Shown here one piece after another: positions 20,772 to 59,177 of a stretch of 64,000 bases of DNA. The translations under genes and the position numbers were made by a program. The stretch's first letter is position 1. Each line of letters begins with the position of its first letter. The notes under the pieces were generated by a model. The model was not told the DNA's origin. It was given only the letters and a program-made list of their open reading frames with translations, and made no database searches. The stretch is taken from NCBI GenBank assembly GCA_963662465.1, contig OY759599.1, positions 3,808,001-3,872,000 on the forward strand, given 5' to 3'. The stretch comes from Desulfatiglandales bacterium (lineage in GTDB: Bacteria; Desulfobacterota; DSM-4660; Desulfatiglandales; Desulfatiglandaceae).

Positions 20772-20813
20772 ATTTCGTGTCATGAGCTTATAAAAAAAAG
20801 CATACTGGAGAAA

Positions 20814-21797: not shown

Positions 21798-21854
21798 ATT
21801 AGTTAAGAGTTAAAAGTTAAGAGTGACAGGTGACGAGTGGTGTGAGGGGATGGT

Positions 21855-22361: not shown

Positions 22362-22409
22362 GTTTTAGGTTTTAAGTTTTAAGTAAAAAAACGAAAGCGG
22401 AGTGAATCC

Positions 22410-24665: not shown

Positions 24666-24672
24666 CATAAAA

Positions 24673-25722: not shown

Positions 25723-25735
25723 CCTATAATTCCAA

Positions 25736-26947: not shown

Positions 26948-27041
26948 TAGGCCATTCGGTTCGAGCGGGTTTGGTCAAAAAAACACACAGGATAAACCAG
27001 TGGTTTTCATGCTCGGTCCCTGTCCCTTATTGTTGGAGTAA

Positions 27042-27070
27042 TTGACAACGGACGCGGAGATTGGTATTAT
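27042..27070 (+). promoter_or_regulatory. Sigma-70 promoter of the TA-like pair, overlapped by inverted repeats
   Basis: TTGACA-17 bp-TATTAT; flanking TGTTGGAGTAAT (27031) and ATTATTTCCAACA (27066). Confidence 0.75.
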
Positions 27071-27077
27071 TTCCAAC

Positions 27078-27374
27078 ATGAAAGCCTTTGAGCTCATTCG
27101 CACACGTATCGCCTATTCTGAGTCGGCCTTTGCTGAGCTGGTATTGTGGCGTCTCCCAAAGCCGATCGAAGGATCGTTACATGGATTCAAGTACAGGCTG
27201 GCGTACGTCGCACGAGGAGAGTGCGTTTTGCGTTACGACAACGAGGTCGGGAAAGGCGATCACCGGCATTTCGGTGGAAAGGAAAGTGCTTACGTGTTTA
27301 CGACACCGGAACAGTTGGTCGCGGATTTCCAGAATGACATTGCGAGGTGGAACCATGAAAACCTTAACCCTTGA
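27078..27374 (+). CDS. DUF6516-like small protein (putative TA component)
   Basis: HGFKYRL...LRYDNE.GKGDHRH motif; overlaps the downstream HTH gene. Confidence 0.75.
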   Translation: MKAFELIRTRIAYSESAFAELVLWRLPKPIEGSLHGFKYRLAYVARGECVLRYDNEVGKGDHRHFGGKESAYVFTTPEQLVADFQNDIARWNHENLNP

Positions 27375-27702
27375 CGTACAAACGCCTACCGATTCAATGG
27401 CGAACTTTGCACGTGCTTGGAAGACAGGCAAACCCCAAAAGTCCACACGTATCAGCTTCGCAACTCCGGAACTGCTTTGGCGCGTGCTGACCGCAAAACG
27501 GTGGGTGTTGCTCAAGGCTCTTTGTGGAGCAGGCCCTGTATCAATCCGCGAAGCTGCTCGACGTGTTGGGCGCGATGTTAAAGCAGTCCACGGCGATGTT
27601 ACCGCACTACTTAACGCCGGCGTCCTTGATCGCACAGACGACGGACGGATCGTTTTTCCCTTCGAAGCCGTGAAAGTTGAATTCTTGTTGCATGCGGCAT
27701 AG
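27355..27702 (+). CDS. HTH DNA-binding protein (putative antitoxin/regulator)
   Basis: LTAKRW.LL...SIREAARRVGRDVKAVHGDV..L wHTH; SD GAGG. Confidence 0.78.
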   Translation: MKTLTLDVQTPTDSMANFARAWKTGKPQKSTRISFATPELLWRVLTAKRWVLLKALCGAGPVSIREAARRVGRDVKAVHGDVTALLNAGVLDRTDDGRIVFPFEAVKVEFLLHAA

Positions 27703-27764
27703 CCCGGTGACATCTTGGGCCGAACAATTTTGATCTATGGCAAGCAGAAACGGAATCAGAGGAG

Positions 27765-27965
27765 TGGTGTCGGCGTTTATGTATCCGGCCCTGTTCAGAT
27801 TTTCCATCTACTGTCTGCTGGGAACCGTGTTCTATAGAGGAAATGATCCGAAGGGATATATGAAACAAGATCGCCCCAGCCTGACTGCACATAAAGTCGC
27901 GATAATGCGGGCAGCACATCAGGTCCTCAATAATCCGAAAGTATTTGAAGATCCGGTAGCGTATG
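27765..27965 (+). pseudogene. Chimeric remnant: GT2 fragment joined to the 5' end of an LCM-type SAM methyltransferase
   Basis: VSAFMYPALFRFSIYCLLGT matches the GT2 gene at ~26705; MKQDRPSLTAHKVAIMRAAHQVLNNPKVFEDP resembles an LCM methyltransferase N-terminus. Confidence 0.6.
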
Positions 27966-28579
27966 GAATTGAGTCGGAAGGGGGAACAACCCTCTGTAAA
28001 GGATTTGACCGAGAAGGAGAAAATCCAGCAGAAGGTGCTGGGTTTGTGATACCTGTTATGCCTATTCTTCTGCTGGATTTTTCGGGGAAAAAGCCAAGAT
28101 TAGATACGGTAGTTTTGACAGGATACGACCGATATAAGATACAAAGATCATGCAAGCTATTTTTTTTGTGGCCGGATAATCGGAAAATGGATCGGCTCCA
28201 ATATGTTGTGGTTGTAGGATTTTTGGATTAGAATTCAGGGACGTGAGGGCTATTTCAGATATGTAAGGCATATCGCAGGTTTTTTGACCTGCTGAAATGT
28301 TGAGATGTTGGAGTTATGTCAAATGGTTGGAGCCCCAAAGCGAATTTTTGCGCCTACTATATCTTGTGTCTGCGTAGCGTTTATAAATTTTCCGTTGCTA
28401 TAGAAAATTTTCTTCATTTCCTGGTGAGATCCCAGGGGATTGGTCTACGAAAGCGAAATCTGTGACTTCAAGGCTGACATATCTAACCTTGCGTTGGACA
28501 CTTCTAAATTTTTCGCTTTACAAGCAGTTGAAAATCGGCCTAAATTGGGCGAAACGAAACGCAAGATTTATGCACGAAT

Positions 28580-41841: not shown

Positions 41842-43209
41842 ATGAAAACAGCAAAACTTTTGATCATCCTGTGTGTTTTTCTTGCGACTTTCCTGGTTGG
41901 AGGGATTTCCCTGGCTCTTGAAGCACCGACCTTAACGGTGTCGACCGCCGGAACTACACTTTCACTTTCTTGGACATCAGTAGCTGGTGCAACGGGATAT
42001 ACTCTATCTTATGCTCCAGCCCCATATACCGGGCCTGACACGATTGGAAGTATTCCCATGGGAACCCAAACATCATGGTCGGCCACTCTTTGGGAAGGTG
42101 CTGCCTATTTCGTGGCTGTCCAGGCGTATGACAGTGTTGCAAGCAGCGTCTATTCCAATATTGAGTATTTTGCTATTGATTCGTCTCTATTGAACCAACA
42201 GCTTCAAAACATTCTGGATACTGCTGTCGTCGACACAGGAGCGACAGGCGCTGTTCTTTCTGTCAAAAGCCCTTCCTTTCAGTGGACAGGTTCCAGCGGC
42301 TTTTCTAATCGTGAGACGAAAACAGCCATGGCGCCCACCGATATGCTACGGCTCGCCAGCATGACGAAATCCTTTGTCAGCGTTGTTGTTCAAAAATTGA
42401 GCGAGGAAGGGAAATTCGACCTGGATGACAAAATCCAGCAGTACCTCCCCGCCGCGATTGTGGACCGTATTTCCCATGGGTCGGAAGTCACCATACGCCA
42501 ACTCCTTAACATGACCAGTGGCATATACAGTTACACCGAAATTGACAACTACAACGATGAAGTAGAGAGAAACCCCTATCGGTCGCCTTGGACTCCAGAG
42601 GAAATTTTGGCGTATGTCTATTCAGAAAAAGCAGTTTTTTCTCCCGGAGAGGGATGGGAATACTCGAATACCAACTATATCTTGTTCGATATGCTTGTCA
42701 AAGAGGTGAGCGGCACTTCGCTTGCAAGCGAAATGCGACGAATTATTCATAAGCCCTTGGGATTAAGCGATACGTTTATGGAAATTCAAGAACCGAGGGA
42801 TGGAGGATTTGGGGGGCTAATTGTACGGGGGTATGAGAAAGATGGGGAGGATGTTACGGAAATTCAAGATGCACTCGGCTTGGGGGATGGTGGATTGATA
42901 TCAGATGCTGAAGGGGTCGTGAAGTTTCTCCAAGGCCTCTTTGTGGATAAGGTCCTGCTGAGTGCGACTTCACTGAATCAGATGCGTAATTTTCATCCCA
43001 TCGAAGATTATGGATTGGGTCTGGAACGCCGAAAGACCAAATTCGGGGAAGCATGGGGTCATAGTGGCGGTTCCAGTGGGTTTGAAGGAGACATGCTGTA
43101 TTTTCCGGAAAGTGAAGTCATTTTTGTATTTTTGACCAATACCATGGATACTAACGTCTGCGAAGAGGTTTTTCAGCACAGCATGGAGTTGCTCTTATCC
43201 ACCAATTGA
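41842..43209 (+). CDS. Secreted serine hydrolase (beta-lactamase/D-Ala-D-Ala carboxypeptidase family) with an N-terminal FN3-like domain
   Basis: Signal peptide; LSWTSVAGATGY FN3-like; SMTK (SxxK), YSN, WGHSG. Confidence 0.88.
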   Translation: MKTAKLLIILCVFLATFLVGGISLALEAPTLTVSTAGTTLSLSWTSVAGATGYTLSYAPAPYTGPDTIGSIPMGTQTSWSATLWEGAAYFVAVQAYDSVASSVYSNIEYFAIDSSLLNQQLQNILDTAVVDTGATGAVLSVKSPSFQWTGSSGFSNRETKTAMAPTDMLRLASMTKSFVSVVVQKLSEEGKFDLDDKIQQYLPAAIVDRISHGSEVTIRQLLNMTSGIYSYTEIDNYNDEVERNPYRSPWTPEEILAYVYSEKAVFSPGEGWEYSNTNYILFDMLVKEVSGTSLASEMRRIIHKPLGLSDTFMEIQEPRDGGFGGLIVRGYEKDGEDVTEIQDALGLGDGGLISDAEGVVKFLQGLFVDKVLLSATSLNQMRNFHPIEDYGLGLERRKTKFGEAWGHSGGSSGFEGDMLYFPESEVIFVFLTNTMDTNVCEEVFQHSMELLLSTN

Positions 43210-44199
43210 AACATTGCATCATCCCAAAAAACACATGACCCATCAACTCGGTGTACAGATAAAGGGCTGATTCTCTCCTGCTCATGGGCATGTTGAAAGG
43301 ATGAGGATGCCCTCGGAACGGGATACTGACTTTATTATGCCTATCTGGTATTTGGAGGATAGAATCCACGGCTATACTCTCAATTTATGTTGCGAGTTTG
43401 GTTATGTTGTGTGTATTTAATTCATCTAATTCATATTTAAAATTGAAATATCTATATAATTCTTATCATTCTGAGCTTGACTTTGCCTTACAAGCATGGT
43501 ATATATTACACCAAGCTTGATTTTATGGTTTTTCTCATATTATTATTATGATTGATTTTAGAAGTTGCAAGCTGTCTGTTATGTCCTACCCCACGTCGAA
43601 TTACCTTCCTTATAGGAGGTTTGCGATATGAGACTTTATGAAAGATGTAGGCCCGCTCGCTTGATCCAGTAACCCTCCCCGGAGCAGTTTAACCCCTGGA
43701 TCAGAACACAGAAGTATGTTTAAAGGATTATTATTATGTTGCGAGTTCCTTCAAACCGTTTCTGGAAATTGGAGGTAAACTATCGGAATCTTTACCAAAT
43801 CATCATTTCTCAAGCCAGATCCGAACTCCCTTATTATTTCGATAGGTTAGGCCAACACACAACATAACTCAATGTATCACAGACTGGCGATGAAAAAGCT
43901 GACCACAACATATAGGATATTGTCCAAACGGCTTTGGTTCCAGATGCTGTCAAGAGCTATTCCAGGAAAAGGTGAAGTATTGATCTATTGATCTCGCAGT
44001 ATTGCGAAATTCCAACCGCTATGCTATGGAGATATCATGCACGGACCCTTTTGCCGTGACCGGATAAGCGGTAAATTGCCCTACCCGCACATGCTGCGGC
44101 CGATGGAATTTCCGGTGTAGCTTTGAGCTTGAAGGGCCACAAGAACAATACGGCACCTGTCAAAATTTCGACAGGGCTGATTCTTTAGGATAATGCCAA

Positions 44200-45366
44200 T
44201 TGCGAAAACTCAATTTATTTCTGCAAGAAGAAGACATAGAAGCATTTCGATTCGGCGAAGGGCTAATCCTTTCCCGTCCACAGAAGCTTTACGTTCTCAA
44301 CGCCACTGCCACCTTTTTATGGGTGGACCTTCAAGAAGGATATACATTAGAAGAGGCCAACAAGCGGCAAGCCCAACGTTTTGGACTCTTGTCGGCTGAA
44401 CTTCTTCCAGATAGCGAGCACATCTACAAACAGTGGGCTTTTGAAGGCCTCATTCCAGGCTCCCCCCATCGTTTGGCTGAAACCAATAATTTACTGGTCA
44501 AATCTGAATTTGATGTTCGTTTTCGAGCAGAATTCTTAAAACCTGCTTCTCCGATTACCAGAACATACCGTTTCCCTGAAAATATGATAACATTGGGCTT
44601 TCAGAACCCAGCACTGGAAAATCTCATTCACCCGGCTTTCGCTCACCTAGAGGAAAAGGATATAACTCCCGATCGTGCCAATATTGAATTGAGAATGGAA
44701 AACGAGGCTGTCATAATTCACTGTGATGGGAAAGAGCCACTTTCCACATTTGATTTGCGTGAAGCCCGTACCAATGCGCTAAATCACATTTTGGATCACA
44801 CATCCGGAAATTCCGATTGGTGTGCACTGCTTCACTCCGCCGCTTTAGCTCGTGGAAAGGAGGCAATTGTTTTAGCTGGAGCCTGTCAAAAGGGTAAAAC
44901 GACTTTGACTGCCTATCTCATTCAAAGGGGTTGGGAATATCTCAGCGAGGATATAACTGCAATCGATGTCCAAATGGGCGCTGTATATGGTCTCCCTTCA
45001 GCGTTGAGCCTAAAACAAGGTAGCTGGGACCTTCTTTCTGCTGATTTTCCTGAAATTGAAACCTTAACCGTTTATGAAAAGTTTGGTTCCAAAATTCGTT
45101 ATTTGCCTCCACCAAAGTACGAAATCGGCCCACGATCCTTTGGATTTCTTTTTGCTGTCGATTTTGATCCAAATGCAACACACTCTTGCCAAGAATTACC
45201 TCCCTTAGAGACTTTGGAAAGTCTCGTCAGTGGCGATTCGTGGATAAGTTCAGCTTCAGATCATCTTATGTTTTTCTTGGGGCTACTCGAAAATGTTCCC
45301 GCTTATCGGTTGACGTATAAGACATTGGATCAGGCTCTATCTTCTATCGAAGAGATAATTTCATGA
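44200..45366 (+). CDS. PqqD/RRE-like domain fused to an HprK-related kinase
   Basis: LYVLNATATFLW (PqqD/RRE signature), LHSAAL, Walker A GACQKGKTT, YLSED. Confidence 0.8.
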   Translation: MRKLNLFLQEEDIEAFRFGEGLILSRPQKLYVLNATATFLWVDLQEGYTLEEANKRQAQRFGLLSAELLPDSEHIYKQWAFEGLIPGSPHRLAETNNLLVKSEFDVRFRAEFLKPASPITRTYRFPENMITLGFQNPALENLIHPAFAHLEEKDITPDRANIELRMENEAVIIHCDGKEPLSTFDLREARTNALNHILDHTSGNSDWCALLHSAALARGKEAIVLAGACQKGKTTLTAYLIQRGWEYLSEDITAIDVQMGAVYGLPSALSLKQGSWDLLSADFPEIETLTVYEKFGSKIRYLPPPKYEIGPRSFGFLFAVDFDPNATHSCQELPPLETLESLVSGDSWISSASDHLMFFLGLLENVPAYRLTYKTLDQALSSIEEIIS

Positions 45367-46472
45367 AAGACCGTGAAGCCCACCTTTTTATCGGACTTTG
45401 CTTATCTGCCCTAGTGGAATCACATCGTTCGCCAGTGCTTGCTGCGAAGTTAAAAAGCGGCCAGATCAACTGGCCCTTAATTGTTACAATCTCTAGTCGG
45501 CACCTGGTTACACCCGCCCTCTTTGCCTCGTTTCAAGTCCATGGGCTAACGGAAATACTTGAATCAGAGGTTCGAAACTATCTGTCAATCATTCACCAAC
45601 TGAATCTAGCTCGGAACAAAAATATTTTAAAGGAAGTGCATGATGTTGTATTCAAACTCAACGATGTCGGGGTTCAGCCAACCCTCATTAAGGGGGCGGC
45701 ACATCTAACCAGCGGGCTTTATAAAGATCCTGGAGCCCGAATTATGAGCGACATTGATATGCTCGTTCCCGAAAGCCAGCTGATGTCTTGTGTGGGAGCC
45801 CTTAAATCATTGGGATATGGTAGCAAAAACCCATTTGATGGTGAATTGAAAGGCCATCATTTTCCAAGATTGATTCACCCAAATCGAGAGGTAGGAATAG
45901 AACTTCACCGCTGGGCTACATCCAAAAATGCAATTAAAGCTGAAGAGATTTTTGGAGCATCTAGCCTTTGGGAGATAAACGGCAATAAATTCAGAATTCC
46001 CTCCCGTGAACACGCTCTCATGATTAATATCATACATGCCCATACGGGAGCGCTTAGATTTCCAGGCCAGATAAATTTCAGGGCTAACATGGACCATGCC
46101 CTTTTGATTCAAGCGCCTGGTGAAAAAGTCGATTGGGCTCGAATATCCGAGGCACTTTGCTCCGTCAGTGAAAAAAAAGCCATGGAAGCTTTTTTAGACA
46201 CCAACTATTGGCTAATGGCAGTTCCTCTTCCGCTACCATTGAGAACAGGCTTGCAGCTATATTTAGGACGTCTTGGGAGGAAAGTTTGCGTCACAAACCA
46301 TTATTTTGAGAAGGGAATTCTGTTGACGTTATTTTTCATTCATTATATAAATTCTCTAATGTTACGGTTTAAAGACCTTGGTCTTAATGAATTTCTTTTG
46401 CGATTAACCAGCCCCAAAAAATGGAAAAATCAAGCAACTGCTTTAAAGAATGTAGTAAAATCGTTAAAGTGA
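45363..46472 (+). CDS. Nucleotidyltransferase family protein (NTP_transf_5-like)
   Basis: LIKG, RIMSDIDML (DxD), IELH; ATGA overlap with the kinase gene. Confidence 0.82.
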   Translation: MKDREAHLFIGLCLSALVESHRSPVLAAKLKSGQINWPLIVTISSRHLVTPALFASFQVHGLTEILESEVRNYLSIIHQLNLARNKNILKEVHDVVFKLNDVGVQPTLIKGAAHLTSGLYKDPGARIMSDIDMLVPESQLMSCVGALKSLGYGSKNPFDGELKGHHFPRLIHPNREVGIELHRWATSKNAIKAEEIFGASSLWEINGNKFRIPSREHALMINIIHAHTGALRFPGQINFRANMDHALLIQAPGEKVDWARISEALCSVSEKKAMEAFLDTNYWLMAVPLPLPLRTGLQLYLGRLGRKVCVTNHYFEKGILLTLFFIHYINSLMLRFKDLGLNEFLLRLTSPKKWKNQATALKNVVKSLK

Positions 46473-46499
46473 CCTGCGAGTTCTAACGGAGGATTAGCT

Positions 46500-46703
46500 T
46501 TGGAAAGAAAAGATCGAGAGTCGTTTGGTGAATCGAATTTTCAAGAAAAGGAAGATCAAAAAGCATCTGAGGGCCTTGACCGCCGTGGCGCTTTCCAGGT
46601 AGCTGGAAAGATGGCGCTCTATACTGCTCCTGCAATGTTGGCGTTGTTAGTTGCAAAAAAGGCTCATGCTCACGGTGAATTTGTTCTAACGCTAATCCAT
46701 TGA
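46500..46703 (+). CDS. Small peptide 1 (candidate RiPP precursor)
   Basis: GGAGG SD plus TTG start; paralogue of 46993-47175; contains YTAP. Confidence 0.75.
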   Translation: MERKDRESFGESNFQEKEDQKASEGLDRRGAFQVAGKMALYTAPAMLALLVAKKAHAHGEFVLTLIH

Positions 46704-46992
46704 TTTGTTTGAATTGATGTGTCCTTCATAAGGTTTTGATATCAAAGGTTTACAAATAGAACAAATTTGCCCTGGTCTCATGCTAGTCCATAATGAAGAT
46801 TTCTAAACAGAATTTTTTCATCCCAATCTGATTTTATATCGGCCTCTGTCAGATTTTCAACCGATGCTTGTTGGATTCCCTCAAGGTTTTTTCACACGGG
46901 AACATGACGGTGTTTGTTTTTTTGAGAGTTTTTTTACACAGAAATCATAATTCTTTAAAAAAATCAAAAAACCAAAGGAGGAGGAAATAGCT

Positions 46993-47175
46993 TTGGAAAA
47001 AAAAGATATAGAGTCGGTTGGTGAATCGAATTCCCAAGAAACAGAAGATCACAAAGCATCTGAGGGCCTTGACCGTCGTGGGGCTTTCCAGGTAGCTGGA
47101 AAGATGGCGCTTTATACTGCTCCTGCAATGTTGGCATTATTAGTTGCAAAAAAAGCTCATGCTGGTTCCGAATAG
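46993..47175 (+). CDS. Small peptide 2 (candidate RiPP precursor)
   Basis: AGGAGGAGG SD plus TTG start; 37 aa identical to peptide 1 with only synonymous differences. Confidence 0.78.
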   Translation: MEKKDIESVGESNSQETEDHKASEGLDRRGAFQVAGKMALYTAPAMLALLVAKKAHAGSE

Positions 47176-47379
47176 AATTCTTTCATCAGATTTTGATTTT
47201 TTCTTTCAAAATCGATAGATGGGTTGTTTGAAATCTTTACAACGCCAAGAGGTAGCCTTCCGTTGTAGGCGATTAAGTTCCGGCCTCACTTAGCGGTTCT
47301 CAAACGAGACGACAGCGCCTTTCGAATATTGGGCGGTCATACCATATATTGTGGTTCCCACATTTTTGGAGAAACCTGC

Positions 47380-47930
47380 ACTATCTCCAACGTACCACAA
47401 CCAAAGACGACGTTGTGATATGATCCACATATCCCAATCGGACAAGACTGAAGTTGCGATTTCACTCATTATCCAACACCACTACATATTGTGGTCACGC
47501 CATTTTCAGATTGTTAATCCAAAAGTGAAGACTTCCTATCATTGTTTTGTTGGACCTGTAACCCGGAGGCCTGAAAAAAGCAGCTGCCTGGCACGAAGTT
47601 TTTCGGTGCAGCATGGAGAAGGATGGCAATTCAATTCTTCCGTTTTGAAACTGAAGGCACGCCCGAAAATCATCGATGTTAACTCTTCCTGAAAAGAATC
47701 AAAAATCATCAAGAGTCGCCCGTTAACGTCTTGCGGCTACCCCAAGATGCGGGGGTTGCCATCCTTATAAAAATTTTTGGCATAACTATCACAATATTCC
47801 AATAGGTTGTGATAAGAGCTCAATATCTCATCCGAGCAAAATTGAATTTGCCGTTTCACTCCTTGTCCAGTACCACTATATCTTGTGGTCGAGACCTTTT
47901 CAGACTGTTAATCCAAAAGTGAAGGTTACG
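47380..47930 (+). repeat. Diverged tandem pair of non-coding units (period ~394 bp) related to 39017-39260 and 54039-54101
   Basis: 47380-47432 identical to 39017-39069; CCACTA.AT.TTGTGGTC....TTTTCAGA.TGTTAATCCAAAAGTGAAG at 47479 and 47873. Confidence 0.85.
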
Positions 47931-48120
47931 TAATATTATGTTGCATTCGAATCTATGGAAAAAAACAGAATCTTACATCTTGCAGCCTTCACCCTTTGTG
48001 ACTGTCGAAAAAGAAGCTAGGGACATAAGGCGGGACAATTAACAAAAGCGCTTGTTCCCACGCTTTGCGTGCGTCAAGATGAGGCCATTGTGCGGGACCG
48101 TTGCAAGAAAAAAAGGACGC

Positions 48121-48193
48121 ATACAGCACTACGGCTTCACCCACAAAAAGGTGGATTTCATCATGAACCTTCGACATTAAGTACCGCATATGA
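48121..48193 (+). pseudogene. 3' remnant resembling the C-terminal tail of a type IIG restriction-modification enzyme
   Basis: HYGFTHKKVDFIMN/FDIKYRI* with one frameshift, resembling the HYGFT.EELDFIINYDIKYRMG tail. Confidence 0.5.
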
Positions 48194-48236
48194 AAGGCAT
48201 TGTACAATGGGAATGCCGGAAAATGTTTGAACACGA

Positions 48237-48621
48237 TTTAAAAGATTAAATGATGGACAGGATTGTCATTGCACGAGAAAACACCAATAAAAAGGGGTAA
48301 AGGGGTCTGAAGGAACTTGTTCAGACGCCGTCTCCTCATCCTGTCCATCCAAAAAATCCTGTTCATCGTGCTCAAAACAGTGGAGAGGCCAACAATGCCG
48401 GATAACCCTTTGCCCGTTTTTGAAATCTATAAAATCCGGACATCAGCGGCGGCCACAAGGCGGGACAATTAAAAAAAACGCGCTCCCACACGCTGCGTGG
48501 GGATGGATGAAAGTCAGGCCTTGGCCAGCCTGCCCCGCTTTTTGTCCGTAGCCATTTTTTGTGTATGTTATGAGTTGTTGATGGTACGATGTGTTCCTCA
48601 TAATAGAGCGTGTTGTTCTGC
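48237..48621 (+). repeat. 385-bp near-identical non-coding repeat R4, copy 1 (copy 2 at 55522-55906)
   Basis: Direct alignment by eye; contains the inverted repeat ATGGACAGGAT...ATCCTGTCCAT. Confidence 0.92.
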
Positions 48622-48796: not shown

Positions 48797-49033
48797 ATGG
48801 ATTTTGAAATTGCAGAAAATATTTTAAGAATTGAAACCATCGCTGTCGGATCTTCAATTCGTGATTTAAAGCGTTTGATCAGAGTGTACGACAATGGGCG
48901 GTGGCGCAAGTTGAAAGGGTTTGCAACGGTACGTTTGATGGACGGATCTTTTCGTAAACCAGAGATCCATTGGTATGAGGCTCATGGAATAGGGAGAAAG
49001 GAATTTAAATTGAAACTCCCGTTTCTGGATTAG
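48797..49033 (+). CDS. Small conserved-looking hypothetical protein (putative toxin-like)
   Basis: IETIA.G.SIR...RL...Y..GRWRKLKG...EIHWYEAHGIG..EFK pattern; tightly paired with the next gene. Confidence 0.7.
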   Translation: MDFEIAENILRIETIAVGSSIRDLKRLIRVYDNGRWRKLKGFATVRLMDGSFRKPEIHWYEAHGIGRKEFKLKLPFLD

Positions 49034-49045
49034 AGGGGGACAGCC

Positions 49046-49297
49046 ATGGAAGAGAAGGTCGCGCTGACACAGGGATTTGTGCTTTGCCTCAACAACCAGG
49101 GATACGAAGCTTCTTTGGAGGTGGGGAAGTTGTATCGTTTTATTGAGGACAAGGATGCGGCATCGCACGGATATGCGCGTGTGGTCGATGAAAGCGGGGA
49201 AGATTATGCCTACTCCAAAAACCGGTTTTTTCATCTCCAGTTACCAAAGACTGTTGAAGAAGTATTGATGTCTTTTTCTGAACAATGTGTGGCATAA
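49046..49297 (+). CDS. Small hypothetical protein (partner of 48797-49033)
   Basis: SD GAGGGG; C..N.GY.ASLE..KLY......RVVDESGEDY.Y...F pattern. Confidence 0.7.
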   Translation: MEEKVALTQGFVLCLNNQGYEASLEVGKLYRFIEDKDAASHGYARVVDESGEDYAYSKNRFFHLQLPKTVEEVLMSFSEQCVA

Positions 49298-49369
49298 ATC
49301 TATAATTTACCACGCAAGAGCATGTGGGTCCATTATGGGCGTGAGGCAGATGGATCAAGAAAACAGAAA

Positions 49370-50419
49370 ATGAAGCAGCGAATTGAGTGGCTCGACAATT
49401 TAAGGGCAATTGCCATATTTTTTGTGGTGCTGGGGCATACCGTCGGTCTTCCCGGGCATGTGGAAAAATTGATTTTTTCTTTTCATATGCCCATTTTCTT
49501 CTGGATTTCAGGGCTTTTTGCCAGGGAAAGCATTCGCGATGAAACTTTTTGGGGTTTCATTGCCAAACGGTGGCGAAAACGCCTCATCCCCTACCTTTCT
49601 TTTTCCGTCATCAGCTATGTGGCCTGGTTTTGTCTGTTCAGACACTTCGGGAGCCAGGCGGAGATGAATATCAGCCCCATTCGGCCGCTCATCGGTTTTT
49701 TTTACGGCAACGGCATCAACGACTGGATGGTGACCAATACCGTATTGTGGTTTTTTCTGTGTTTGTTTGTTACGGAGATTTTTTTCTACTTTGTGATCAA
49801 GGTCCCTTCAAAGCTTTGGATGGTGCTGTTGCTGGCGGGGTTTTCCATTGTGGGATATCTGGATGTTTACTACAACCCGCCCGATGGTTTCAGACTGCCC
49901 TGGGACATGGATATTGCGCTTACAACGGTTGTTTTCTATGGCGCCGGGTATCTTTCAAAAGGGTACGTACTCGGAAATAAAAAATCCACCCCCTGGCGGT
50001 GGCTCGTCATGCTCCTCAGCCTTGTCATTTATGCGGTTTTCAGCCTCTTGAATCGGAAAGTCGCCCTGGTGGCGGGTGTGTACGGCAATTATTTTTATTT
50101 TTATGCGGCTGCCATAGCGGGCATCTGCTTCTGGATGGAGCTGGCCTACATGATTCCGACGTCACGGTTTTTTTCCAGGATCGGCCGGAACACCCTCACC
50201 ATATTCTCTCTGCACCTGCTGGTATTTCCTTTTATTACGGCCGTTTTGGTCTACGGATTGAAGATGCCCTCCCAATTGAAGTTCGAGTCCGCATCCCTCT
50301 CCCTGGCCTACGCGGTCATCAGCATCCTGGTGTTGCTGCCCATATCCGATCTGATCAATCGATATGTCCCCTTCATTCTAGGGGAGTCCCGAAAACCGGC
50401 GTCACAACTAACCCTTTAA
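49370..50419 (+). CDS. Acyltransferase family 3, copy 2
   Basis: Near-identical, intact paralogue of 24673-25722. Confidence 0.92.
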   Translation: MKQRIEWLDNLRAIAIFFVVLGHTVGLPGHVEKLIFSFHMPIFFWISGLFARESIRDETFWGFIAKRWRKRLIPYLSFSVISYVAWFCLFRHFGSQAEMNISPIRPLIGFFYGNGINDWMVTNTVLWFFLCLFVTEIFFYFVIKVPSKLWMVLLLAGFSIVGYLDVYYNPPDGFRLPWDMDIALTTVVFYGAGYLSKGYVLGNKKSTPWRWLVMLLSLVIYAVFSLLNRKVALVAGVYGNYFYFYAAAIAGICFWMELAYMIPTSRFFSRIGRNTLTIFSLHLLVFPFITAVLVYGLKMPSQLKFESASLSLAYAVISILVLLPISDLINRYVPFILGESRKPASQLTL

Positions 50420-50432
50420 CCTATAATTCCAA

Positions 50433-51642
50433 TTGAGGTTCAAAATGTTTATAATTCATCTTATGTTCACCCTGGTATTCCTGTATATAATCATCACAAC
50501 CCTTTACCTCGTCATCCTGACCGTTGCCGCCTATTGTTTCACGAAGAAGCAAGGATCTATTCCCGGACCCTTTTCCATAGCGCTCATCATCCCCGCTCAC
50601 AACGAGGCCCTTGAAATCGGGAAGACCATTGAAAATGTCAAGGGCTGCGGTTATCCTGAAGATGCCTACGGTATTGTGGTGATTGCCGATAACTGCAACG
50701 ATGAAACCGCTTCCCTGGCCCGGTCCGCGGGGGCTGTGGTGGTGGAGCGGACGGACATGGCAAACCGCGGGAAAGGCCAGGCCCTGGACTGGTTTTTCAA
50801 GAACCACGCCGACATTTATGGACGCTACGATGCCGTGGCCATCATGGATGCGGATACCCTTATGCATGGATTTTCTCTCTGAAATATCATCGAGTCTTTC
50901 TTCTCCGGGGGTGAACGCGATGCAGGGTTATTACGGGGTTTCCAATCCAGAGGACAACTGGCGTACGGCATTGTCTTCCGCCGCCCTGAATGTATTTCAC
51001 CATATTCGTCCCGCCGGCCGCAACCGCATCGGGGGGACGGCAGGGCTCAAGGGAAACGGTATGGCCTTTAAAACCGACATCCTCAAAACATACGGCTGGC
51101 CCGCTTATTCTATTGTGGAAGATATTGAATTTTCCATGATCCTGCTTCACGATGGCATCATTGTGCATTACAACCCGGACGCCATCGTTTATGGAGAGAT
51201 GGCCACGGAAAAGAAACAGGCCGAAACCCAGCGAAAGCGCTGGGAAGGGGGGCGTTTCGAGGTACTCAAGAAATACGCTTCGCCGCTGCTCAAAATGTGG
51301 TTCAAGGACAAAAAAAAGGTGCAATACCTGGATGGTTTCATGGAGTTGTTTACCCCGCCCCTGTCACTTCTGGTGATAGGACAGATCCTTTTTTTTGGGG
51401 TGTCGGCCTTTATGTATCCGGCCCTGTTTAGACTTTCCATCTACTGCCTGTTGGGAACCGCGTTCTATGTCTTTTCGGGATTGATCCTCAAGAAAGCGCC
51501 CCTTTATGTCTGGAAATGCCTTTTTTCGGCCCCTTTCTTTATCCTCTGGAAAATCCCCATCTATCTGAAAGTCGTAAAAAAGGGCAACCAGAACACCTGG
51601 GAGAGGACTCAGCGAAAATCCGAACTGGAGAAGAAAGAGTGA
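50433..51642 (+). pseudogene. Glycosyltransferase family 2, copy 2, frameshifted
   Basis: 2-nt deletion after 50867 (ATGCATCCGGAT in copy 1, ATGCATGGAT here). Confidence 0.88.
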
Positions 51643-51655
51643 TAGGCCATTCGAT

Positions 51656-52279: not shown

Positions 52280-53605
52280 ATGAGAATAAAGATCGCGGGT
52301 ATTGTGCTGTTTTTCTGTTTTGTGGTAACCGGTCTTTTTGGGGCTTCCATGGTCTTGTCATCTGATGACATAATTAATCCGCAGGGAAGCGAGACAGGGG
52401 ATAACGTCTGGTATGGGGAAGCTGCATGCGATAGCATCACGAGCGGAGCAGGTAACTCCTTTTTCGGAAGGGCCGCCGGGTATTCGAATACCACCGGTAA
52501 CGAGAACTCCTTTTTCGGAAGGGCTGCCGGTCTTATTAACACCACTGGAAACAACAATTCCTTTTTCGGAACAGATGCGGGGCATGAGAACAAAGACGGA
52601 CACTCCAACTCCTTTTTCGGATGGAAAGCCGGACATAACAACACTTCAGGATACTCAAACTCCTTTTTCGGGCTAAACGCCGGTCTTAGTAACACCACCG
52701 GAGACAACAATTCCTTTTTTGGAAGGGCCGCCGGGTATTCGAATACCACCGCAGACAACAATTCTTTTTTCGGGCAGGGCGCCGGTATCAATAACACTGG
52801 AGGAAGCGATAACGCCTTTTTCGGGCAGGATGCAGGGTGGAATAATACTAGCGCCAATTATAATACCTTTATCGGACAGGAAGCCGGACAAAGTGTAGAT
52901 AATCCCCTGACCGGAGGTAGCAACGTCTTTGTTGGACAGCGCACTGGATGGAAGAACACCAGCGGGCATTCCAATACTTTTCTCGGAAGAAATGCCGGTG
53001 CGTTTAACACAGAGGGATCCAGCAATACCTTTGTAGGGAGGGCTTCGGGATACCACAACCTGACTGGAGATCTTAATGTGTTCCTGGGTTATAATTCGGG
53101 ATATAATGAAACCGGATCCAACAAGCTCTATATTGCTAATACCGGCACTATTAACCCTCTTATCTGGGGTGATTTTAACACCAGAAACCTGGTGATAAAC
53201 GGAAACTTCCGGGCTATTGCAGTTACAAGCCCTTCGGATTTACGCTTAAAAAGGAATATTAAACCATTGGAATCATCCCTAGACAAAATATCCAATCTTC
53301 AGGGTGTGACCTATGAGTGGAATCGAGAAGACTATCCCGATGCGGGAATGACCGAGGGCAAACAGATCGGCCTGGTTGCACAAGACGTTGAAAAAGAGTT
53401 CCCTGAACTGGTCTCTGAGGACAAGGACGGCTATAAGGGTTTGTCCTATTCAAAATTGACGGCCGTGCTCGTTGAAGCTGTTAAGGAGTTGAAGACTGAG
53501 AATCAGAGTCAGAAAAAACTGATAGAGGCGCAACGGAACCAATTTAAGAAACAGCAGGCCGAAATTGAAGAATTACGTTCGATGATAAAAGAATTGAAGA
53601 GCTGA
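52280..53605 (+). CDS. Secreted trimeric fibre-like protein with 14-aa repeats and a C-terminal S74 intramolecular chaperone
   Basis: Signal peptide; NSFFGRAAGYSNTT-type repeats; SDLRLKRNI, IGLVAQDVE, LSYSKL..VLVEAVKE, coiled coil. Confidence 0.88.
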   Translation: MRIKIAGIVLFFCFVVTGLFGASMVLSSDDIINPQGSETGDNVWYGEAACDSITSGAGNSFFGRAAGYSNTTGNENSFFGRAAGLINTTGNNNSFFGTDAGHENKDGHSNSFFGWKAGHNNTSGYSNSFFGLNAGLSNTTGDNNSFFGRAAGYSNTTADNNSFFGQGAGINNTGGSDNAFFGQDAGWNNTSANYNTFIGQEAGQSVDNPLTGGSNVFVGQRTGWKNTSGHSNTFLGRNAGAFNTEGSSNTFVGRASGYHNLTGDLNVFLGYNSGYNETGSNKLYIANTGTINPLIWGDFNTRNLVINGNFRAIAVTSPSDLRLKRNIKPLESSLDKISNLQGVTYEWNREDYPDAGMTEGKQIGLVAQDVEKEFPELVSEDKDGYKGLSYSKLTAVLVEAVKELKTENQSQKKLIEAQRNQFKKQQAEIEELRSMIKELKS

Positions 53606-54532: not shown

Positions 54533-55306
54533 ATGAAAAAGCCGCTCAAAAAGATACTGTATTTGTTACTCTTGTTTTCATTGGTTGCAATAGGAACGGA
54601 TGCCAACGCAACTTTTTTCTCCGGCAGCGTAACCGGAGAGTGGGGAAATGTCATTTCTACCGACAACAATGATGTTTATAGTATCAGCAATAAGGATGAT
54701 CGTGGGCGGAATGGTGTTGCCAAATTCAATTGGGGAGAGGGTGGCTCATATCCTGCTACCTCGTTTGACAACCAATTCACCTTTGATGGCGTCGGTAGCG
54801 ACCCTGGAGAATCGGAATGGGACGTAGAGGAAGCGATTGCGTTTCTTCTGGGGGATTTTACCTATCGAAACGGGTCGACCTATAATTCAACAGGCGTCGA
54901 TGGCGTTGATCTCAATGTAATGGTTTCCCTTTCAAGCCCTGTAAATACAGACTATAATTTTTCAAGTTTTGGATTTACAATAACAAACACGCCCAATTCA
55001 ACAGGAAATTCGGTAACGGATGGTGATATTGTCATCCTTGCCAATAACACAACAGATAACACCTTTAGCTATGCCGGGACTGAATACACGCTCGAAGTCC
55101 TTGGATTTTCGAAGGATTCTGGAAATACATTTGCCTATAATTTCAGCAGCCCAGAAGGAGCAACTGCAAGTGCTGGGCTTTACGGAAAAATCAGCAAAAC
55201 AGGTGGTAGCGCCCAAGTCCCCGAACCAGCAACCATTTTCCTGTTGGGTTCCGGGCTATTGGGTCTCTTCGGATATCGAAAGAAATTCAATAAAACTGAT
55301 AATTGA
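54533..55306 (+). CDS. PEP-CTERM sorting-domain surface protein (choice-of-anchor K-like)
   Basis: Signal peptide ANA-T; Ser/Thr/Asn-rich; VPEPATIFLLGSGLLGLFGYRKK. Confidence 0.92.
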   Translation: MKKPLKKILYLLLLFSLVAIGTDANATFFSGSVTGEWGNVISTDNNDVYSISNKDDRGRNGVAKFNWGEGGSYPATSFDNQFTFDGVGSDPGESEWDVEEAIAFLLGDFTYRNGSTYNSTGVDGVDLNVMVSLSSPVNTDYNFSSFGFTITNTPNSTGNSVTDGDIVILANNTTDNTFSYAGTEYTLEVLGFSKDSGNTFAYNFSSPEGATASAGLYGKISKTGGSAQVPEPATIFLLGSGLLGLFGYRKKFNKTDN

Positions 55307-55521: not shown

Positions 55522-55906
55522 TTTAAAAGATTAAATGATGGACAGGATTGTCATTGCACGAGAAAACACCAATAAAAAGGTGTAAAGGGGTCTGAAGGAA
55601 CTTGTTCAGACGCCGTCTCCTCATCCTGTCCATCTAAAAAATCCTGTTCATCGTGTTCAAAACAGTGGAGAGGCCAACAATGCCGGACAACCCTTTGCCC
55701 GTTTTTGAAATCTATAAAATCCGGACATCAGCGGCGGCCACAAGGCGGGACAATTAAAAAAAACGCGCTCCCACACGCTGTGTGGGGATGGATGAAAGTC
55801 AGGCCTTGGCCAGCCGGCCCCGCTTTTTGTCCGTAGCCATTTTTTGTGTATGTTATGAGTTGTTGATGGTACGATGTGTTCCTCATAATAGAGCGTGTTG
55901 TTCTGC
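55522..55906 (+). repeat. 385-bp repeat R4, copy 2
   Basis: Near-identical to 48237-48621. Confidence 0.92.
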
Positions 55907-56211
55907 TTAATATTGATTTTTACATAAACGAATATCTGCTGTACGAAGATGCAACTGAAGCAAAGGATGGGGCATCTTTTGCTGGGATGTTTTTGGGTGA
56001 CTGGTTTATAAGAAAAGCAACGTGGGCAAATAAGTCAAGTATTAAGGGGTATGTAGCGAGCCTCAAGAAGTTCTACACATTTTTACAAGAGAAAGGATTG
56101 ATCGATAAAGAAGATCTGACTGAGTTGAAGCAAACGATAAAAGAAGAGATGCCTGAATGGTTGGCAACCTTGGAGGAGTATGATGATCCGTCAATTGAGG
56201 ACCTTTGGTAA
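55907..56211 (+). pseudogene. 5'-truncated gene resembling an integrase SAM-like N-terminal-domain protein
   Basis: NIDFYINEYL...FLGDWFIRKA.W....IK....SLKKFYTFL; the predicted start lies inside repeat R4. Confidence 0.55.
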
Positions 56212-59177
56212 GGAAAAACTTGACGCACAAAAATTCCGCAACCGATTACATCGATTTTAATGCACTGTATGAGAAATATCAGGCGCTGCTTGAAGAGAAC
56301 CTTTCTCTCAAAGCTGAAATCCGGGAACTGAAAAGACAACCCCTGTTGCCCTTCTATCCGCATCCTGTGTTGGATACCCCACCATTGCTTCAGGAACAGC
56401 TTATCGGCGAGTCATCAAAGCCGACAATTTCAAATACGGGGACCGTCACCAACCTCTCCCGGCCCGCCGATAAAATTGAACTTTTTATGTCGCTTTTTAG
56501 AGGCCGGGAGGATGTCTATGCCAGGAGATGGGAAAGCAAAACCGGAAAACGCGGATACAGCCCTGCCTGTTTGAATGAATGGAAACCGGGCGTATGCCAT
56601 AAGCCAAGAACTAAATGCTTCAATTGTAAATACCGATCTTATGCGCCTTTGAATGAAAAAGTGGTTGACAGCCATCTGCGCGGGGAAATGGTGATTGGGA
56701 TATACCCGTTGTGCCGCGATGAAACCTGTCATTTTCTGGCCATTGATTTTGACAAAGACGGCTGGCAGCAGGATGTTGCAGCAATAAGGGCTGTGTGTGG
56801 GGAGTTTGGAATTCCCATCGCTCTTGAACGTTCCATGTCAGGCAATGGCGCTCATGTATGGATCTTCTTTAAAATGAATATTCCTGCCGCTACGGCAAGG
56901 CGATTGGGTTCAGGCCTCCTCACCCATGCCATGGCGCGACGTCATGAGATCAAGTTTAAATCCTATGACAGACTTTTCCCGAACCAGGACACGATGCCCA
57001 AAGGCGGTTTGGGAAATCTGATTGCCGCGCCCCTTCAAATGGCAGCGCGAAAAAAAGAAAACAGCGTTTTTGTTGATGAGCGTTTTATCCCTTATGAAGA
57101 TCAATGGGAATTCCTGGACCAAATGCAAGCCCTTGGGCCGGAGGAGATATCAAAACTTGTCACGAGGCTTTGTCCGGAAAACGAACTGGGATACCTGAAA
57201 GCGGATGAATCTGTTACAAAAAAACCTTGGGAACGTTCCCATATGGATCTCAAAAGAAAGGATTTTCCGGAAACTTTTGATATCGTAAAATCCGGTATGC
57301 TTTATGTGGATAAGAAAGGCTTTTCCCAAAAGGCGCTGAATATCTTGAAACGATTGGCGGCCTTTAACAATCCGGAATTTTACAAAGCCCAGGCCATGCG
57401 GATGCCCACTTACGGCAAATCCAGAATTATTTCCTGCTTTGATGATTTTGAGACTCACCTCGGCCTGCCTCGGGGGTGCGAAAATGATCTGCGTGAACTT
57501 TTCGATGGATTCAGCCTCCAGCCGCGCTGGTTTGATGAAACACAGCATGGGAAGACCATTCGGGTGGAATTCGAGGGTAAACTCCGAGAAGAACAGCAAG
57601 CGGCACTTGATGCCTTGATGAAGTATGATATTGGCGTTTTGTCCGCTACAACCGCCTTTGGAAAAACCGTTGTAGGCGCCGGACTCATCAGTGAACGGAA
57701 GGTTAACACATTGATTCTGGTACACCGGCAACAGCTTTTGTCCCAATGGATGAAGCGATTGTCCGATTTTCTGGTAATACGGGAGGAACTCCCCGAACTG
57801 CCCGAAAAGAGGGGACGAAAAAAGGAACAGGGACTCATTGGGCAGATGGGCGCGGGGAAAAACCGGCCGAGCGGCATTATTGATGTCGCCATGATGCAGT
57901 CTTTGAATTCGAGGGAAGAAATTAAAGACTGCATAAAGGACTACGGGATGGTGATTGTTGATGAGTGCCATCACGTGCCGGCCTTCAGTTTTGAACAGAT
58001 ATTGAAAAATGCAACAGCAAGATATGTTTACGGTTTAACGGCAACGCCCGCCAGGAGGGATGGGCATCATCCCATTCTTTTTTTTCAATGCGGTCCCATC
58101 CGGTACAGTGTTGATGCAAAAAAGCAGGCTCAACAAAGACCTTTTGACCATTACGTTCTTCCAAGATTCACATCCTTTAAACTTCCATTCCGAAAAGGTG
58201 ACGATGATCCTTCCATTCAGGAGATTTACTCAACACTTGCCTCCGATGAAATTCGCAATGATTTAATCGTTGACGATGTGACGGCATGCCGTCAAAAAGG
58301 CCGGAATTCCCTTGTGCTGACCGGGCGGATTGCCCACGTTAAAGCATTGGCTGAAAAACTCAGACACAGTATCCCGAATGTGGTTGTCTTGACAGGCGGT
58401 ATGGGAACCAAAACAACCGGCAATTTGCTGGAGATGATATCCTCAACGCCCCGGGAGAACCCGCTTACGCTGGTTTCAACGGGAAAGTTTATCGGCGAAG
58501 GGTTTGATGAACCGAGACTTGACACCCTGTTTCTGGCCATGCCCATCTCCTGGAAAGGCACGTTGCAGCAGTACGTCGGAAGATTGCACCGGTTATGCGA
58601 CCATAAAAAGGATGTTCAAGTCTATGATTATGTGGATATCCATGTGCCCATGCTGGAAAAAATGTATGGGAAAAGATTAAGAGGTTACGCTTCCATCGGG
58701 TATCAGGCAAAGGGAGAGAGCATTCCAGGGGCGCCCGCTGACATTATCTTTGACAATCGCAGCTTTTTTAGCGTTTACACAAATGATATCGAAAATGCAT
58801 CCAAACAAATCTTGATCGTCAGTCCCTTTGTCACTGAAAAACGAGTCTCCCAGATGATGCCGTATTTCGAAGTGCTTCTGAAAAAAAAGATCGCCGTTAC
58901 CATCCTTACCCGGCCCGCGGAAAATTTCAAAATTGAAAAACTGAGGATGCTGAGGAGCATTTTCAGAAGTCTGATGGATGCCGGGATCAGGGTCATTTTC
59001 AAATCCCATATTCATCAGAAATTTGCCGTCATCGACCGAAAGATTGTCTGGTACGGCAGTATTAACCTGTTAAGTTTCGGCGTTTCCCAAGAGAGCATCA
59101 TGCGGTTGCTCAGCGGCGGGATTGCATATGAATTACTGCAGAGCGTTAATGCCGATGATCTTGATTTAAGGCTTTGA
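56205..59177 (+). CDS. AEP primase-like domain plus SF2 (DEAH-like) helicase plus PLD-like nuclease (TOTE-like architecture)
   Basis: AIDFD, ERSMSGNGAHVW; TAFGKT, DECHH, TAT, QYVGRLHR; IVSPF, HQKFAVID, GSINL. Confidence 0.82.
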   Translation: MVRKNLTHKNSATDYIDFNALYEKYQALLEENLSLKAEIRELKRQPLLPFYPHPVLDTPPLLQEQLIGESSKPTISNTGTVTNLSRPADKIELFMSLFRGREDVYARRWESKTGKRGYSPACLNEWKPGVCHKPRTKCFNCKYRSYAPLNEKVVDSHLRGEMVIGIYPLCRDETCHFLAIDFDKDGWQQDVAAIRAVCGEFGIPIALERSMSGNGAHVWIFFKMNIPAATARRLGSGLLTHAMARRHEIKFKSYDRLFPNQDTMPKGGLGNLIAAPLQMAARKKENSVFVDERFIPYEDQWEFLDQMQALGPEEISKLVTRLCPENELGYLKADESVTKKPWERSHMDLKRKDFPETFDIVKSGMLYVDKKGFSQKALNILKRLAAFNNPEFYKAQAMRMPTYGKSRIISCFDDFETHLGLPRGCENDLRELFDGFSLQPRWFDETQHGKTIRVEFEGKLREEQQAALDALMKYDIGVLSATTAFGKTVVGAGLISERKVNTLILVHRQQLLSQWMKRLSDFLVIREELPELPEKRGRKKEQGLIGQMGAGKNRPSGIIDVAMMQSLNSREEIKDCIKDYGMVIVDECHHVPAFSFEQILKNATARYVYGLTATPARRDGHHPILFFQCGPIRYSVDAKKQAQQRPFDHYVLPRFTSFKLPFRKGDDDPSIQEIYSTLASDEIRNDLIVDDVTACRQKGRNSLVLTGRIAHVKALAEKLRHSIPNVVVLTGGMGTKTTGNLLEMISSTPRENPLTLVSTGKFIGEGFDEPRLDTLFLAMPISWKGTLQQYVGRLHRLCDHKKDVQVYDYVDIHVPMLEKMYGKRLRGYASIGYQAKGESIPGAPADIIFDNRSFFSVYTNDIENASKQILIVSPFVTEKRVSQMMPYFEVLLKKKIAVTILTRPAENFKIEKLRMLRSIFRSLMDAGIRVIFKSHIHQKFAVIDRKIVWYGSINLLSFGVSQESIMRLLSGGIAYELLQSVNADDLDLRL

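Follow-up and report, generated by a model that had tools for sequence, protein, structure and literature searches.

What does a gene cluster make that encodes a peptide-binding domain fused to a kinase, a nucleotidyltransferase and two small peptides, with no lasso cyclase among them? The question is raised by positions 44200 to 47175 of a 64,000-nucleotide stretch of a Desulfatiglandales bacterium (contig OY759599.1 of assembly GCA_963662465.1, forward-strand positions 3,808,001 to 3,872,000; genome G000), which we call the window. A preliminary description had read the cluster as possibly a minimal pathway that phosphorylates and nucleotidylates both peptides, in the manner of peptides synthesized by ribosomes and modified post-translationally (RiPPs). 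Our analyses point, with about an even chance of being right, to a cyclase-free peptide-modification cassette that would combine docking by a RiPP recognition element (RRE), phosphorylation of Ser59, possible addition of a sugar or nucleotide, and export along the pathway of twin-arginine translocation (Tat) with signal peptidase I. The closest system is the linear polyphosphorylated peptide (LPP) cluster (lppA-K-B-S-D-N) of Paenibacillus alginolyticus (Popov et al. 2026, PMC13381572), which likewise has an RRE, an HprK-like kinase and an NTP transferase but no cyclase, and so gives the minimal pathway a precedent. The features of the cassette are:

44200..45366, + strand: fusion of RRE and HprK-like kinase, 388 residues; intact frame; relative P0003 is 63% identical
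44230..44454, + strand: RRE domain (PqqD/B1-type), approximately residues 11-85; its N34 and D71 correspond in alignment to N33 and D70 of LppB
44878..44904, + strand: Walker A loop GACQKGKTT, residues 227-235; Q230 in place of a nearly invariant Gly
45363..46472, + strand: PF14907 nucleotidyltransferase, 369 residues; keeps the family-invariant G111, R126, D130, D132 and H225
46500..46703, + strand: peptide 1, 67 residues; leader intact to AHA (ending at residue 57), then 10 residues from a mobile element; no Ser after the leader
46993..47175, + strand: peptide 2, 60 residues; acidic N-region, RR (28-29), YTAPAM (41-46), KK, AHA (55-57), core GSE
47167..47169, + strand: Ser59 of peptide 2, predicted phosphorylation site; 18 residues past the leader Tyr (Tyr+18) and second after AHA, the spacing of LppA Y-16 to S3

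The two enzyme frames overlap by four nucleotides (ATGA), and both peptides start at a TTG codon 7-8 nucleotides downstream of GGAGG. Indeed, the four same-strand open reading frames (ORFs), the enzyme overlap, the Shine-Dalgarno sites of the peptides and the motifs GACQKGKTT, LIKG, SDID, ELH and YTAPAML of the preliminary description can all be read directly in the window. The peptides are genuine genes, since codons 27-57 of the two paralogs differ only synonymously (six synonymous, no non-synonymous differences), and the leader is under purifying selection; codons 1-26 show no synonymous and six non-synonymous differences. The cluster had also been called an AT-richer cassette. Its low G+C content stands (42.7% versus 49.5% for the genome, 5th percentile among 3-kb windows), but the cassette has no sharp bounds, because composition is similarly low over about 10 kb (39.5-49 kb). 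Pattern scans gave 13 promoter matches versus 8.8±2.9 in shuffled sequences and 5 terminator matches versus 4.6±2.5, with no excess of either.

The first enzyme had been described as a PqqD/RRE-like domain fused to an HprK-related kinase, and family matches and fold agree with this. Of the proposed profile searches, PF14907 matched the nucleotidyltransferase clearly (E 2.6e-31), whereas PF05402 (residues 28-85; 19.7 bits, cut-off 23.4) and TIGR04352 (residues 168-385; E 1.8e-19, 69.9 bits versus a cut-off of 200) matched the kinase ORF below their cut-offs, and TIGR04353 was unreported for the window proteins at E up to 1. Homologs of the kinase match PF05402 at up to E 5e-13 and PF07475 weakly. 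In an AlphaFold2 model (mean predicted local distance difference test, pLDDT, of 85), the N-terminus forms three strands and then three helices, the RRE fold that had been expected, while Foldseek matches the remainder to phosphoenolpyruvate (PEP) carboxykinase and HPr kinase. A family profile of the RRE matches TbiB1 (E 1e-10), TfuB1, LppB (4e-5) and PbaB1, and its two invariant columns are N34 and D71; of their LppB counterparts, N33 fixes the leader Pro and D70 hydrogen-bonds the leader Tyr (PMC13381572). The RRE is fused to the kinase in the window and in 38 of 43 near-full-length kinase matches. Both the only PF05402 match and the only PF14907 match of the genome lie at this locus; no solved relative was found for the nucleotidyltransferase profile.

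Similar peptides adjoining homologous RRE-kinase and nucleotidyltransferase genes had been anticipated, and a neighbourhood survey found them. A word-index search retrieved only the peptide itself and three relatives of the kinase, so a profile search was needed. The peptide profile, built from six rows, retrieved 1,110 representatives at E≤0.001, with a lower tail that may include ordinary Tat signals; the best 150 of the 1,110 were examined, and leader anatomy was counted over the 146 of these 150 that could be anchored, with RR demanded by the anchor. Pattern scans located 14 loci in named genomes (Desulfomonile, Syntrophaceae, Alphaproteobacteria, Magnetominusculus) and 61 peptide loci in metagenomes. 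The kinase matched in 36 of 401 genomes of the phylum. A second sample of the phylum yielded 14 of 401 genomes, two of them false. The best six kinase places outside G000 are fusions or close kinases, five with a similar peptide adjoining and one at a contig end. A metagenome scan with a single kinase sequence found nothing, and none of the five pattern matches of a viral scan was confirmed. Seven weak peptide-profile matches were rejected (the two inspected were a long Fe-S protein with an ordinary Tat-like signal and a spurious frame), as were those in G734 and G707, which are long proteins. No Pfam or NCBIfam model describes the peptides, and no similar solved peptide was found.

RRE/kinase genes occur in 44 of 85 peptide loci and nucleotidyltransferase genes in 33 of 85; where at least 3 kb is available on both sides, the counts are 23 and 19 of 33. 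These loci, from which ten were set aside (seven duplicates, L087, L197 and L198), are not independent draws, because the seed peptides came from beside kinases and the loci are related. Ten orphan peptide loci lie in six genomes that carry a fused kinase elsewhere. Up to seven peptides stand in one array, sharing a leader but varying in their tails. The cassette is present in cultured hosts, namely Sinorhizobium meliloti Ak57 (UIJ95549-51), Ensifer canadensis T173, Methylobacterium tardum DSM 19566 and Parasedimentitalea psychrophila, so it is directly testable.

Among the 125 of 215 neighbouring ORFs scanned at E≤1e-7 (loci L179-L198 excluded), there was no lasso B2 or C protein, signal peptidase or peptide exporter. 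Neighbours that recur in subsets are 2-oxoglutarate (2OG)-Fe(II) oxygenases, family 2 glycosyltransferases (GT2), DUF6065 and DUF2298. Several recurrent neighbour ORFs have no family match; ORFs of 280-530 residues in or beside cassettes that match neither Pfam nor NCBIfam are L081:4357-5511, L084:7656-8924, L085:7187-8425, L091:537-1388, L108:5572-6405, L131:498-2084 and L132:3940-5526. Peptides with Pro/Thr-rich tails stand beside a 2OG-Fe(II) oxygenase plus GT2, or DUF6065 plus DUF2298, in L091, L108, L134, L118, L132, L137 and L138, which suggests hydroxyproline or O-glycosylation branches. A related but distinct locus (L045:4212-8225) encodes a discrete PqqD, a kinase, a radical SAM protein, a nucleotidyltransferase, a Wzc-like protein and a peptide with RR farther upstream of YVAP.

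The peptide is very probably the partner of this RRE. The lasso leader motif [Y/W]xxPx[L/V/I/A/F/Y], as published, is present in 59 of the 146 leaders, and in 120 once Met, the residue of the window peptides, is allowed. Leader Tyr and RRE Asp are concordant in 35 of 36 loci (24 Tyr/Asp, 11 non-Tyr/non-Asp, one exception), a count that left out L193, P0003 and P0004, which have an ambiguous or no locus. Where the leader has Phe, Val, Cys or Ala for Tyr, the RRE Asp is lost in 11 of 12 loci, and among 352 columns this one is the best at tracking the leader Tyr. The complex prediction that had been proposed as a check scored 0.60 for the RRE and peptide versus 0.02 for the best control, with contacts agreeing at least 85% between runs and a partner pLDDT of at least 57.

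Based on its anatomy, the whole conserved leader is a Tat-signal-like unit, as far as residues can tell: RR, an apolar stretch that holds YxxPxM, basic residues and AxA. The consensus of the 146 leaders is RRE(A/F)LKK(M/L/C)G(K/R)(Y/F)AAYTAPA(M/L)xxLLxxxKAxA-x-S-G, and RR is also at least 90% conserved in an unanchored alignment. Taking Tat signal features (S/T-RRxFLK and others) from PMC6085387 as a guide, the TatP pattern RR.[FGAVML][LITMVF] is found in 140 of 146 leaders, RR within the first 35 residues in 139, an uncharged run of at least 13 residues in 143, K/R in the c-region in 115 and a small-x-Ala site in 122. TIGR02811 matches 5 of 125 leaders, and the Pfam Tat models match none. G000 has one ordinary S26 signal peptidase, 2.2 Mb from the cassette. 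The SipW-type peptidase model TIGR02228 has no match in G000 and exceeds its cut-off in one of 20 genomes, on another contig; an MsbA-like exporter is absent among the window's flanking ORFs and the neighbours scanned. In L036:17400-18239 (G295:C105), tatC lies about 6.4 kb downstream of a peptide, which may be chance.

The same leader heads very different passengers: 145-residue Ig-like domains, a Hint-like domain (below cut-off) and Cys-, Pro/Thr- or Gly-rich tails. Ig-like and Hint-like passengers suit export. The modelled 145-residue domain has generic Ig-like sandwich matches (best Z 8.0, root-mean-square deviation 2.7, 95 aligned residues), and so we draw no function from it; another comparison found nothing at E≤0.001, and the Atlas gave no usable match. 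In this lineage (L039, L041, L071, P0010, P0012, P0013, P0022, P0029, P0045, P0051, P0066, P0099), Phe replaces the leader Tyr and the domain follows an invariant QS. An Omp85-family gene stands beside the kinase in L039 and L040.

Ser59 is the sole candidate site in peptide 2, and its position makes it a likely phosphorylation site. In LPP, LppK adds phosphates to a single residue, Ser3 of the LppA core, 18 residues after Tyr-16 in the context A-Q-S (PMC13381572). The closest peptide, P0055 (73% identical to peptide 2), ends on the equivalent Ser. Ser stands at Tyr+18 in 66 of 143 library peptides, a figure inflated by a seed profile that held that Ser. In peptides read from their loci, Ser falls within +1 to +3 after AxA in 34 of 69, versus 96 of 371 control windows (26%); a Ser or Thr follows the leader at some position in 89 of 93, and 16 of 93 have no more than five residues after Tyr+16.

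Peptide 1 differs in that its end comes from a mobile element:

46661..46670, + strand: target duplication, left copy, 10 bp; 9 of 10 positions match the right copy
46671..46774, no strand: miniature mobile element, 104 bp, inverted ends; occurs in 14 identical genome copies
46775..46793, + strand: target duplication, right copy, and the displaced earlier peptide 1 tail (Ser-Pro-stop)

Peptide 1 is 67 residues long because of this insertion. Its residues 58-67 (HGEFVLTLIH) are encoded by the element and recur genome-wide, and we rejected this tail as a real core. The 10-bp target duplication is perfect in 13 copies and matches at 9 of 10 positions at peptide 1. Since the frame beyond the element reads SHASP-stop, peptide 1 earlier ended in AHA-SP, and its product would then have been pSer-Pro. 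The insertion is recent, as the identity of the element copies shows. It is present in contigs of run X1, where no joint skips the element, although X1 is possibly the source sample and hence not independent; runs X3-X5 covered fragments and repeats only. The left end of the element matches 15 ends of larger elements at 19 of 20 bases, and one larger element that shares it carries DDE_Tnp_1_assoc and DruA domains. At about 2.024 Mb of G000, a multicopy element (L001:8148-10074) has one end in common with the 104-bp element; its ORF is a fusion of DruA (DUF4338) with a DDE transposase-associated domain. Such domains point to a parent of the ISAs1 type. With the tail of peptide 1 lost, only peptide 2 keeps the likely target Ser, and peptide 1 is now probably unmodified at its former site; in this respect the proposal that both peptides are substrates is not supported.

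In the scheme that we propose, the RRE would dock the YTAPAM of the peptide leader, and the HprK-like domain would phosphorylate Ser59, two residues past AHA. The nucleotidyltransferase may then add a hexose or a nucleotide to the phosphate, although we put the chance that it acts on phospho-Ser a little below even. In vivo, its pseudomycoidin counterpart attaches one or two hexoses to the phosphate (PMC8498205); because this is the one in vivo precedent, a nucleoside monophosphate adduct (+NMP), as first suggested, is less likely than a sugar-phosphate. The leader would double as a Tat signal, with housekeeping Tat and LepB (signal peptidase I) exporting and cutting the peptide, a route that we consider slightly more probable than not. 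The mature product here would be approximately Gly-pSer(X)-Glu. A leader that serves both the RRE and the Tat translocase would explain how the cluster can do without its own protease or exporter.

Several observations weigh against this scheme. The Tyr/Asp pairing amounts to four changes on a quick tree, of which only one or two fall on well-supported branches, and a sign test on so few is not significant. The score of the predicted complex is also weak: the mark is reached by 116 of 157 solved and 2 of 215 mismatched pairs, of which just 18 solved pairs but both mismatches score 0.60 or less, and passes in this range are more often wrong than right unless the pairing is likely beforehand. 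The score may also come from likeness to, or memory of, solved B1-leader complexes. At two positions that are nearly invariant, the kinase of the window differs (G230Q and D250E), although it keeps H212, G232, K233, T235 and D251. Phe of RRxFLK occurs in just 32 of the 146 leaders, an acidic n-region prevails (median net charge -3), and TIGR01409 matches only 1 of 125 leaders (E 0.018). TatC is found in G000 and all 19 other peptide-bearing genomes (20 of 20), but also in 11 of 14 control genomes; as it is so common, its presence counts for little. Ser is at Tyr+18 in only 15 of 93 locus-read peptides, so a universal Ser at this position was rejected; it is the commonest site, not a family rule. 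Ser is at +2 after AxA in 23 of 69 locus peptides and in +1 to +3 after 5 of 13 ordinary Tat sites, the latter a small control that includes false positives. We found no precedent for exporting a three-residue core. Finally, LppN gave no detectable product in the LPP study (PMC13381572).

How does the proposed cassette compare with known systems? LPP shares with it a YxxPx(V/L/M) leader, a conserved N-part with a very variable tail, a target Ser 18 residues past Tyr (often A-Q-S), the Asn and Asp of the RRE, and capsule or exopolysaccharide (EPS) genes nearby (PMC13381572). Cleavage of the signal peptidase I type is shown in LPP and proposed here. The LPP RRE is discrete, whereas ours is fused to the kinase, and LPP has the SipW-type LppS and an MsbA-like exporter, neither of which is in our cluster. 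The LPP leader consensus YxxPxVLxHQxIxFETxxS agrees in YxxP, apolar +5/+6 and Ser +18, but in the cassette an apolar run and KKAHA take the place of HQxIxFET. LPP is said to be confined to Bacillota, whereas the cassette hosts are Gram-negative; the cores of the cassette family, unlike those of LPP, range from one to three residues up to a folded domain. Thus, the cassette works like LPP yet is not a member of it, given the fused RRE, the different leader, and the lack of a SipW-type peptidase and exporter.

The phosphorylated lasso systems (paeninodin kinase, pseudomycoidin; PMC8498205) likewise have an HPr-kinase homolog that acts on a precursor Ser, a nucleotidyltransferase, a B1-type RRE and a YxxP leader. 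The cassette differs from them in having no B2 protease, cyclase or ABC exporter and no possible ring, and its Ser follows a signal-peptidase-like site rather than ending a lasso core. Ordinary Tat signals, as characterized in PMC6085387, share with the leader a twin Arg within 35 residues, an h-region of weakly apolar character, a basic c-region and AxA; the leader is unlike them in its far higher conservation, embedded YxxPxM, acidic n-region, frequent Ala for Phe and almost absent passenger. YxxP occurs in none of 13 control Tat candidates of this genome. The HPr-rel-A cassette (TIGR04352, TIGR04353) also has an HprK-related kinase, a PqqD-like domain and a PF14907 neighbour, and TIGR04352 is the best NCBIfam match of our kinase; it is set apart by the kinase score far below the cut-off, the unmatched TIGR04353 and our fused architecture. 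We know of no function for the HPr-rel-A cassette. Bufferins reportedly use a Sec signal. A literature search that covered few subscription papers found nothing on a twin-arginine RRE leader or on this cassette.

The preferred scheme has to be weighed against other readings of the same genes. The main rival, which we consider unlikely, is that the modified peptide is never released and remains in the inner membrane, either to signal from there or to serve as a small carrier or primer for the assembly of surface glycans, with a sugar on its phospho-Ser. Where cores have one to three residues, little besides the leader remains of the gene. An exopolysaccharide locus and a PEP-CTERM gene lie in the window, certain loci also have genes for GT2, GT-C-like proteins (PMT_2, DUF2298), O-antigen ligase or 2OG-Fe(II) oxygenase, and LPP clusters, too, sit in capsule loci (PMC13381572). 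However, most leaders keep the small-x-Ala site, their apolar run spans just some 15 residues, export suits long folded cores better, and the neighbours of most loci are unrelated, no glycan gene being conserved among them. Less probable again is a cytoplasmic phospho-RiPP, in which the RR helix docks the kinase or transferase, the likeness to Tat is incidental, and an undescribed protease and exporter finish the product. RR is fixed 13 residues before Tyr, the Gly and Thr between and after them are conserved beyond what a signal peptide needs, and the Phe of the Tat motif is mostly Ala; set against this, a conserved protease or exporter is missing among the scanned neighbours, the leader retains all three parts of a signal, basic c-region and AxA included, and Tat-signal families are among the nearest named Atlas clusters (0.84-0.85), which we treat only as leads.

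It is improbable, too, that the family is functional but the window copy is decaying and makes nothing. The interrupted peptide 1, the G230Q and D250E changes and surroundings of repeats, insertion sequence remnants and a duplicated, frameshifted glycosyltransferase segment would fit such decay, but both enzyme frames and peptide 2 are intact, the leader has six synonymous and no non-synonymous changes, the insertion is recent, and P0003 has both kinase changes too. We give a slightly smaller chance to a peptide that chaperones, localises or regulates the enzymes while the real substrate is a sugar or another protein. Two complete kinase-adjoining peptides have no Ser/Thr after the leader (one ends at AxA), and the kinase fold is common to PEP carboxykinase and HPr kinase. 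Ser or Thr nonetheless follows the leader in nearly all locus peptides, arrays with one leader and varied tails are typical of precursors, and LppK and the lasso kinases act on a precursor Ser (PMC13381572; PMC8498205).

Processing of the peptides as lasso precursors by a B2/C pair elsewhere is the least probable reading. The YxxPx(L/M) motif and B1-like RRE are common to lasso systems, but the preliminary description had noted no lasso cyclase or B2 protease in the window, and this is borne out and extends to the complete genome: the sole PF13471 match is a 519-residue transglutaminase-like protein, and the three strong PF00733 matches are GATase-bearing asparagine synthetases 0.9-2.6 Mb away, with two weak matches (1.61 and 6.52 Mb; frames of 232 and 243 residues) uninspected. 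A lasso ring has 7-9 residues and needs an Asp/Glu acceptor; a three-residue core cannot form such a ring. In other peptide genomes, PF13471 occurs in 4 of 19, always on other contigs. We therefore rejected lasso precursors for this genome, because B2 is absent and the core too short.

On the reading of a cyclase-free modification cassette, the LPP logic would extend from Bacillota to Gram-negative bacteria. A three-gene system also bears on what PF14907 transferases do, LppN having given no product. A much broader generalization is tentative, and we think it rather less probable than the preferred scheme: a RiPP class, widespread in Gram-negative bacteria, whose RRE leader and Tat signal would be one and the same 30-residue segment, and the fused RRE-kinase would hold the signal until the first passenger Ser is phosphorylated and glycosylated, and then hand it to Tat. 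Passengers would run from a single Ser or tripeptide, delivering a phospho-sugar amino acid, ribosomally templated, to the periplasm, to Ig-like domains, as a signal-peptide-directed protein phosphoglycosylation. Engineering could also profit from a portable leader by which Ser residues of diverse passengers are modified.

The surroundings of the cassette in the window are rich in repeats. Just upstream of the kinase, an element of about 505 bp with short inverted ends (43373-43880) has no long ORF and four further genome copies at 97-99% identity. Several short dispersed repeat families lie downstream of peptide 2 (47250-48620), and the repeat 48237-48621 recurs at 55522-55906 (98%). Two small adjoining ORFs at 48797-49297 (78 and 83 residues) match no Pfam or NCBIfam model; we take their layout to recall a toxin-antitoxin-like pair. 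The exopolysaccharide locus (17727-28228) encodes RmlD, a polysaccharide export protein, GT2, a serine O-acetyltransferase-like protein, a GT2-GT4 fusion, an acyltransferase and an EpsU-like GT2. The last two are part of a 2.3-kb duplication (94% identical; 24670-26958 and 49367-51653), in which the second EpsU-like copy is split over two frames near 50.7-50.9 kb. Other genes encode a beta-lactamase-family serine hydrolase with a signal peptide, which is most like AmpH-type peptidases and scores far under beta-lactamase cut-offs (41842-43209), a repeat-rich protein with an endosialidase-chaperone (S74) domain (52280-53605), a choice-of-anchor K/PEP-CTERM-like protein (54533-55306) and a 990-residue fusion of primase-polymerase and helicase (56205-59177).

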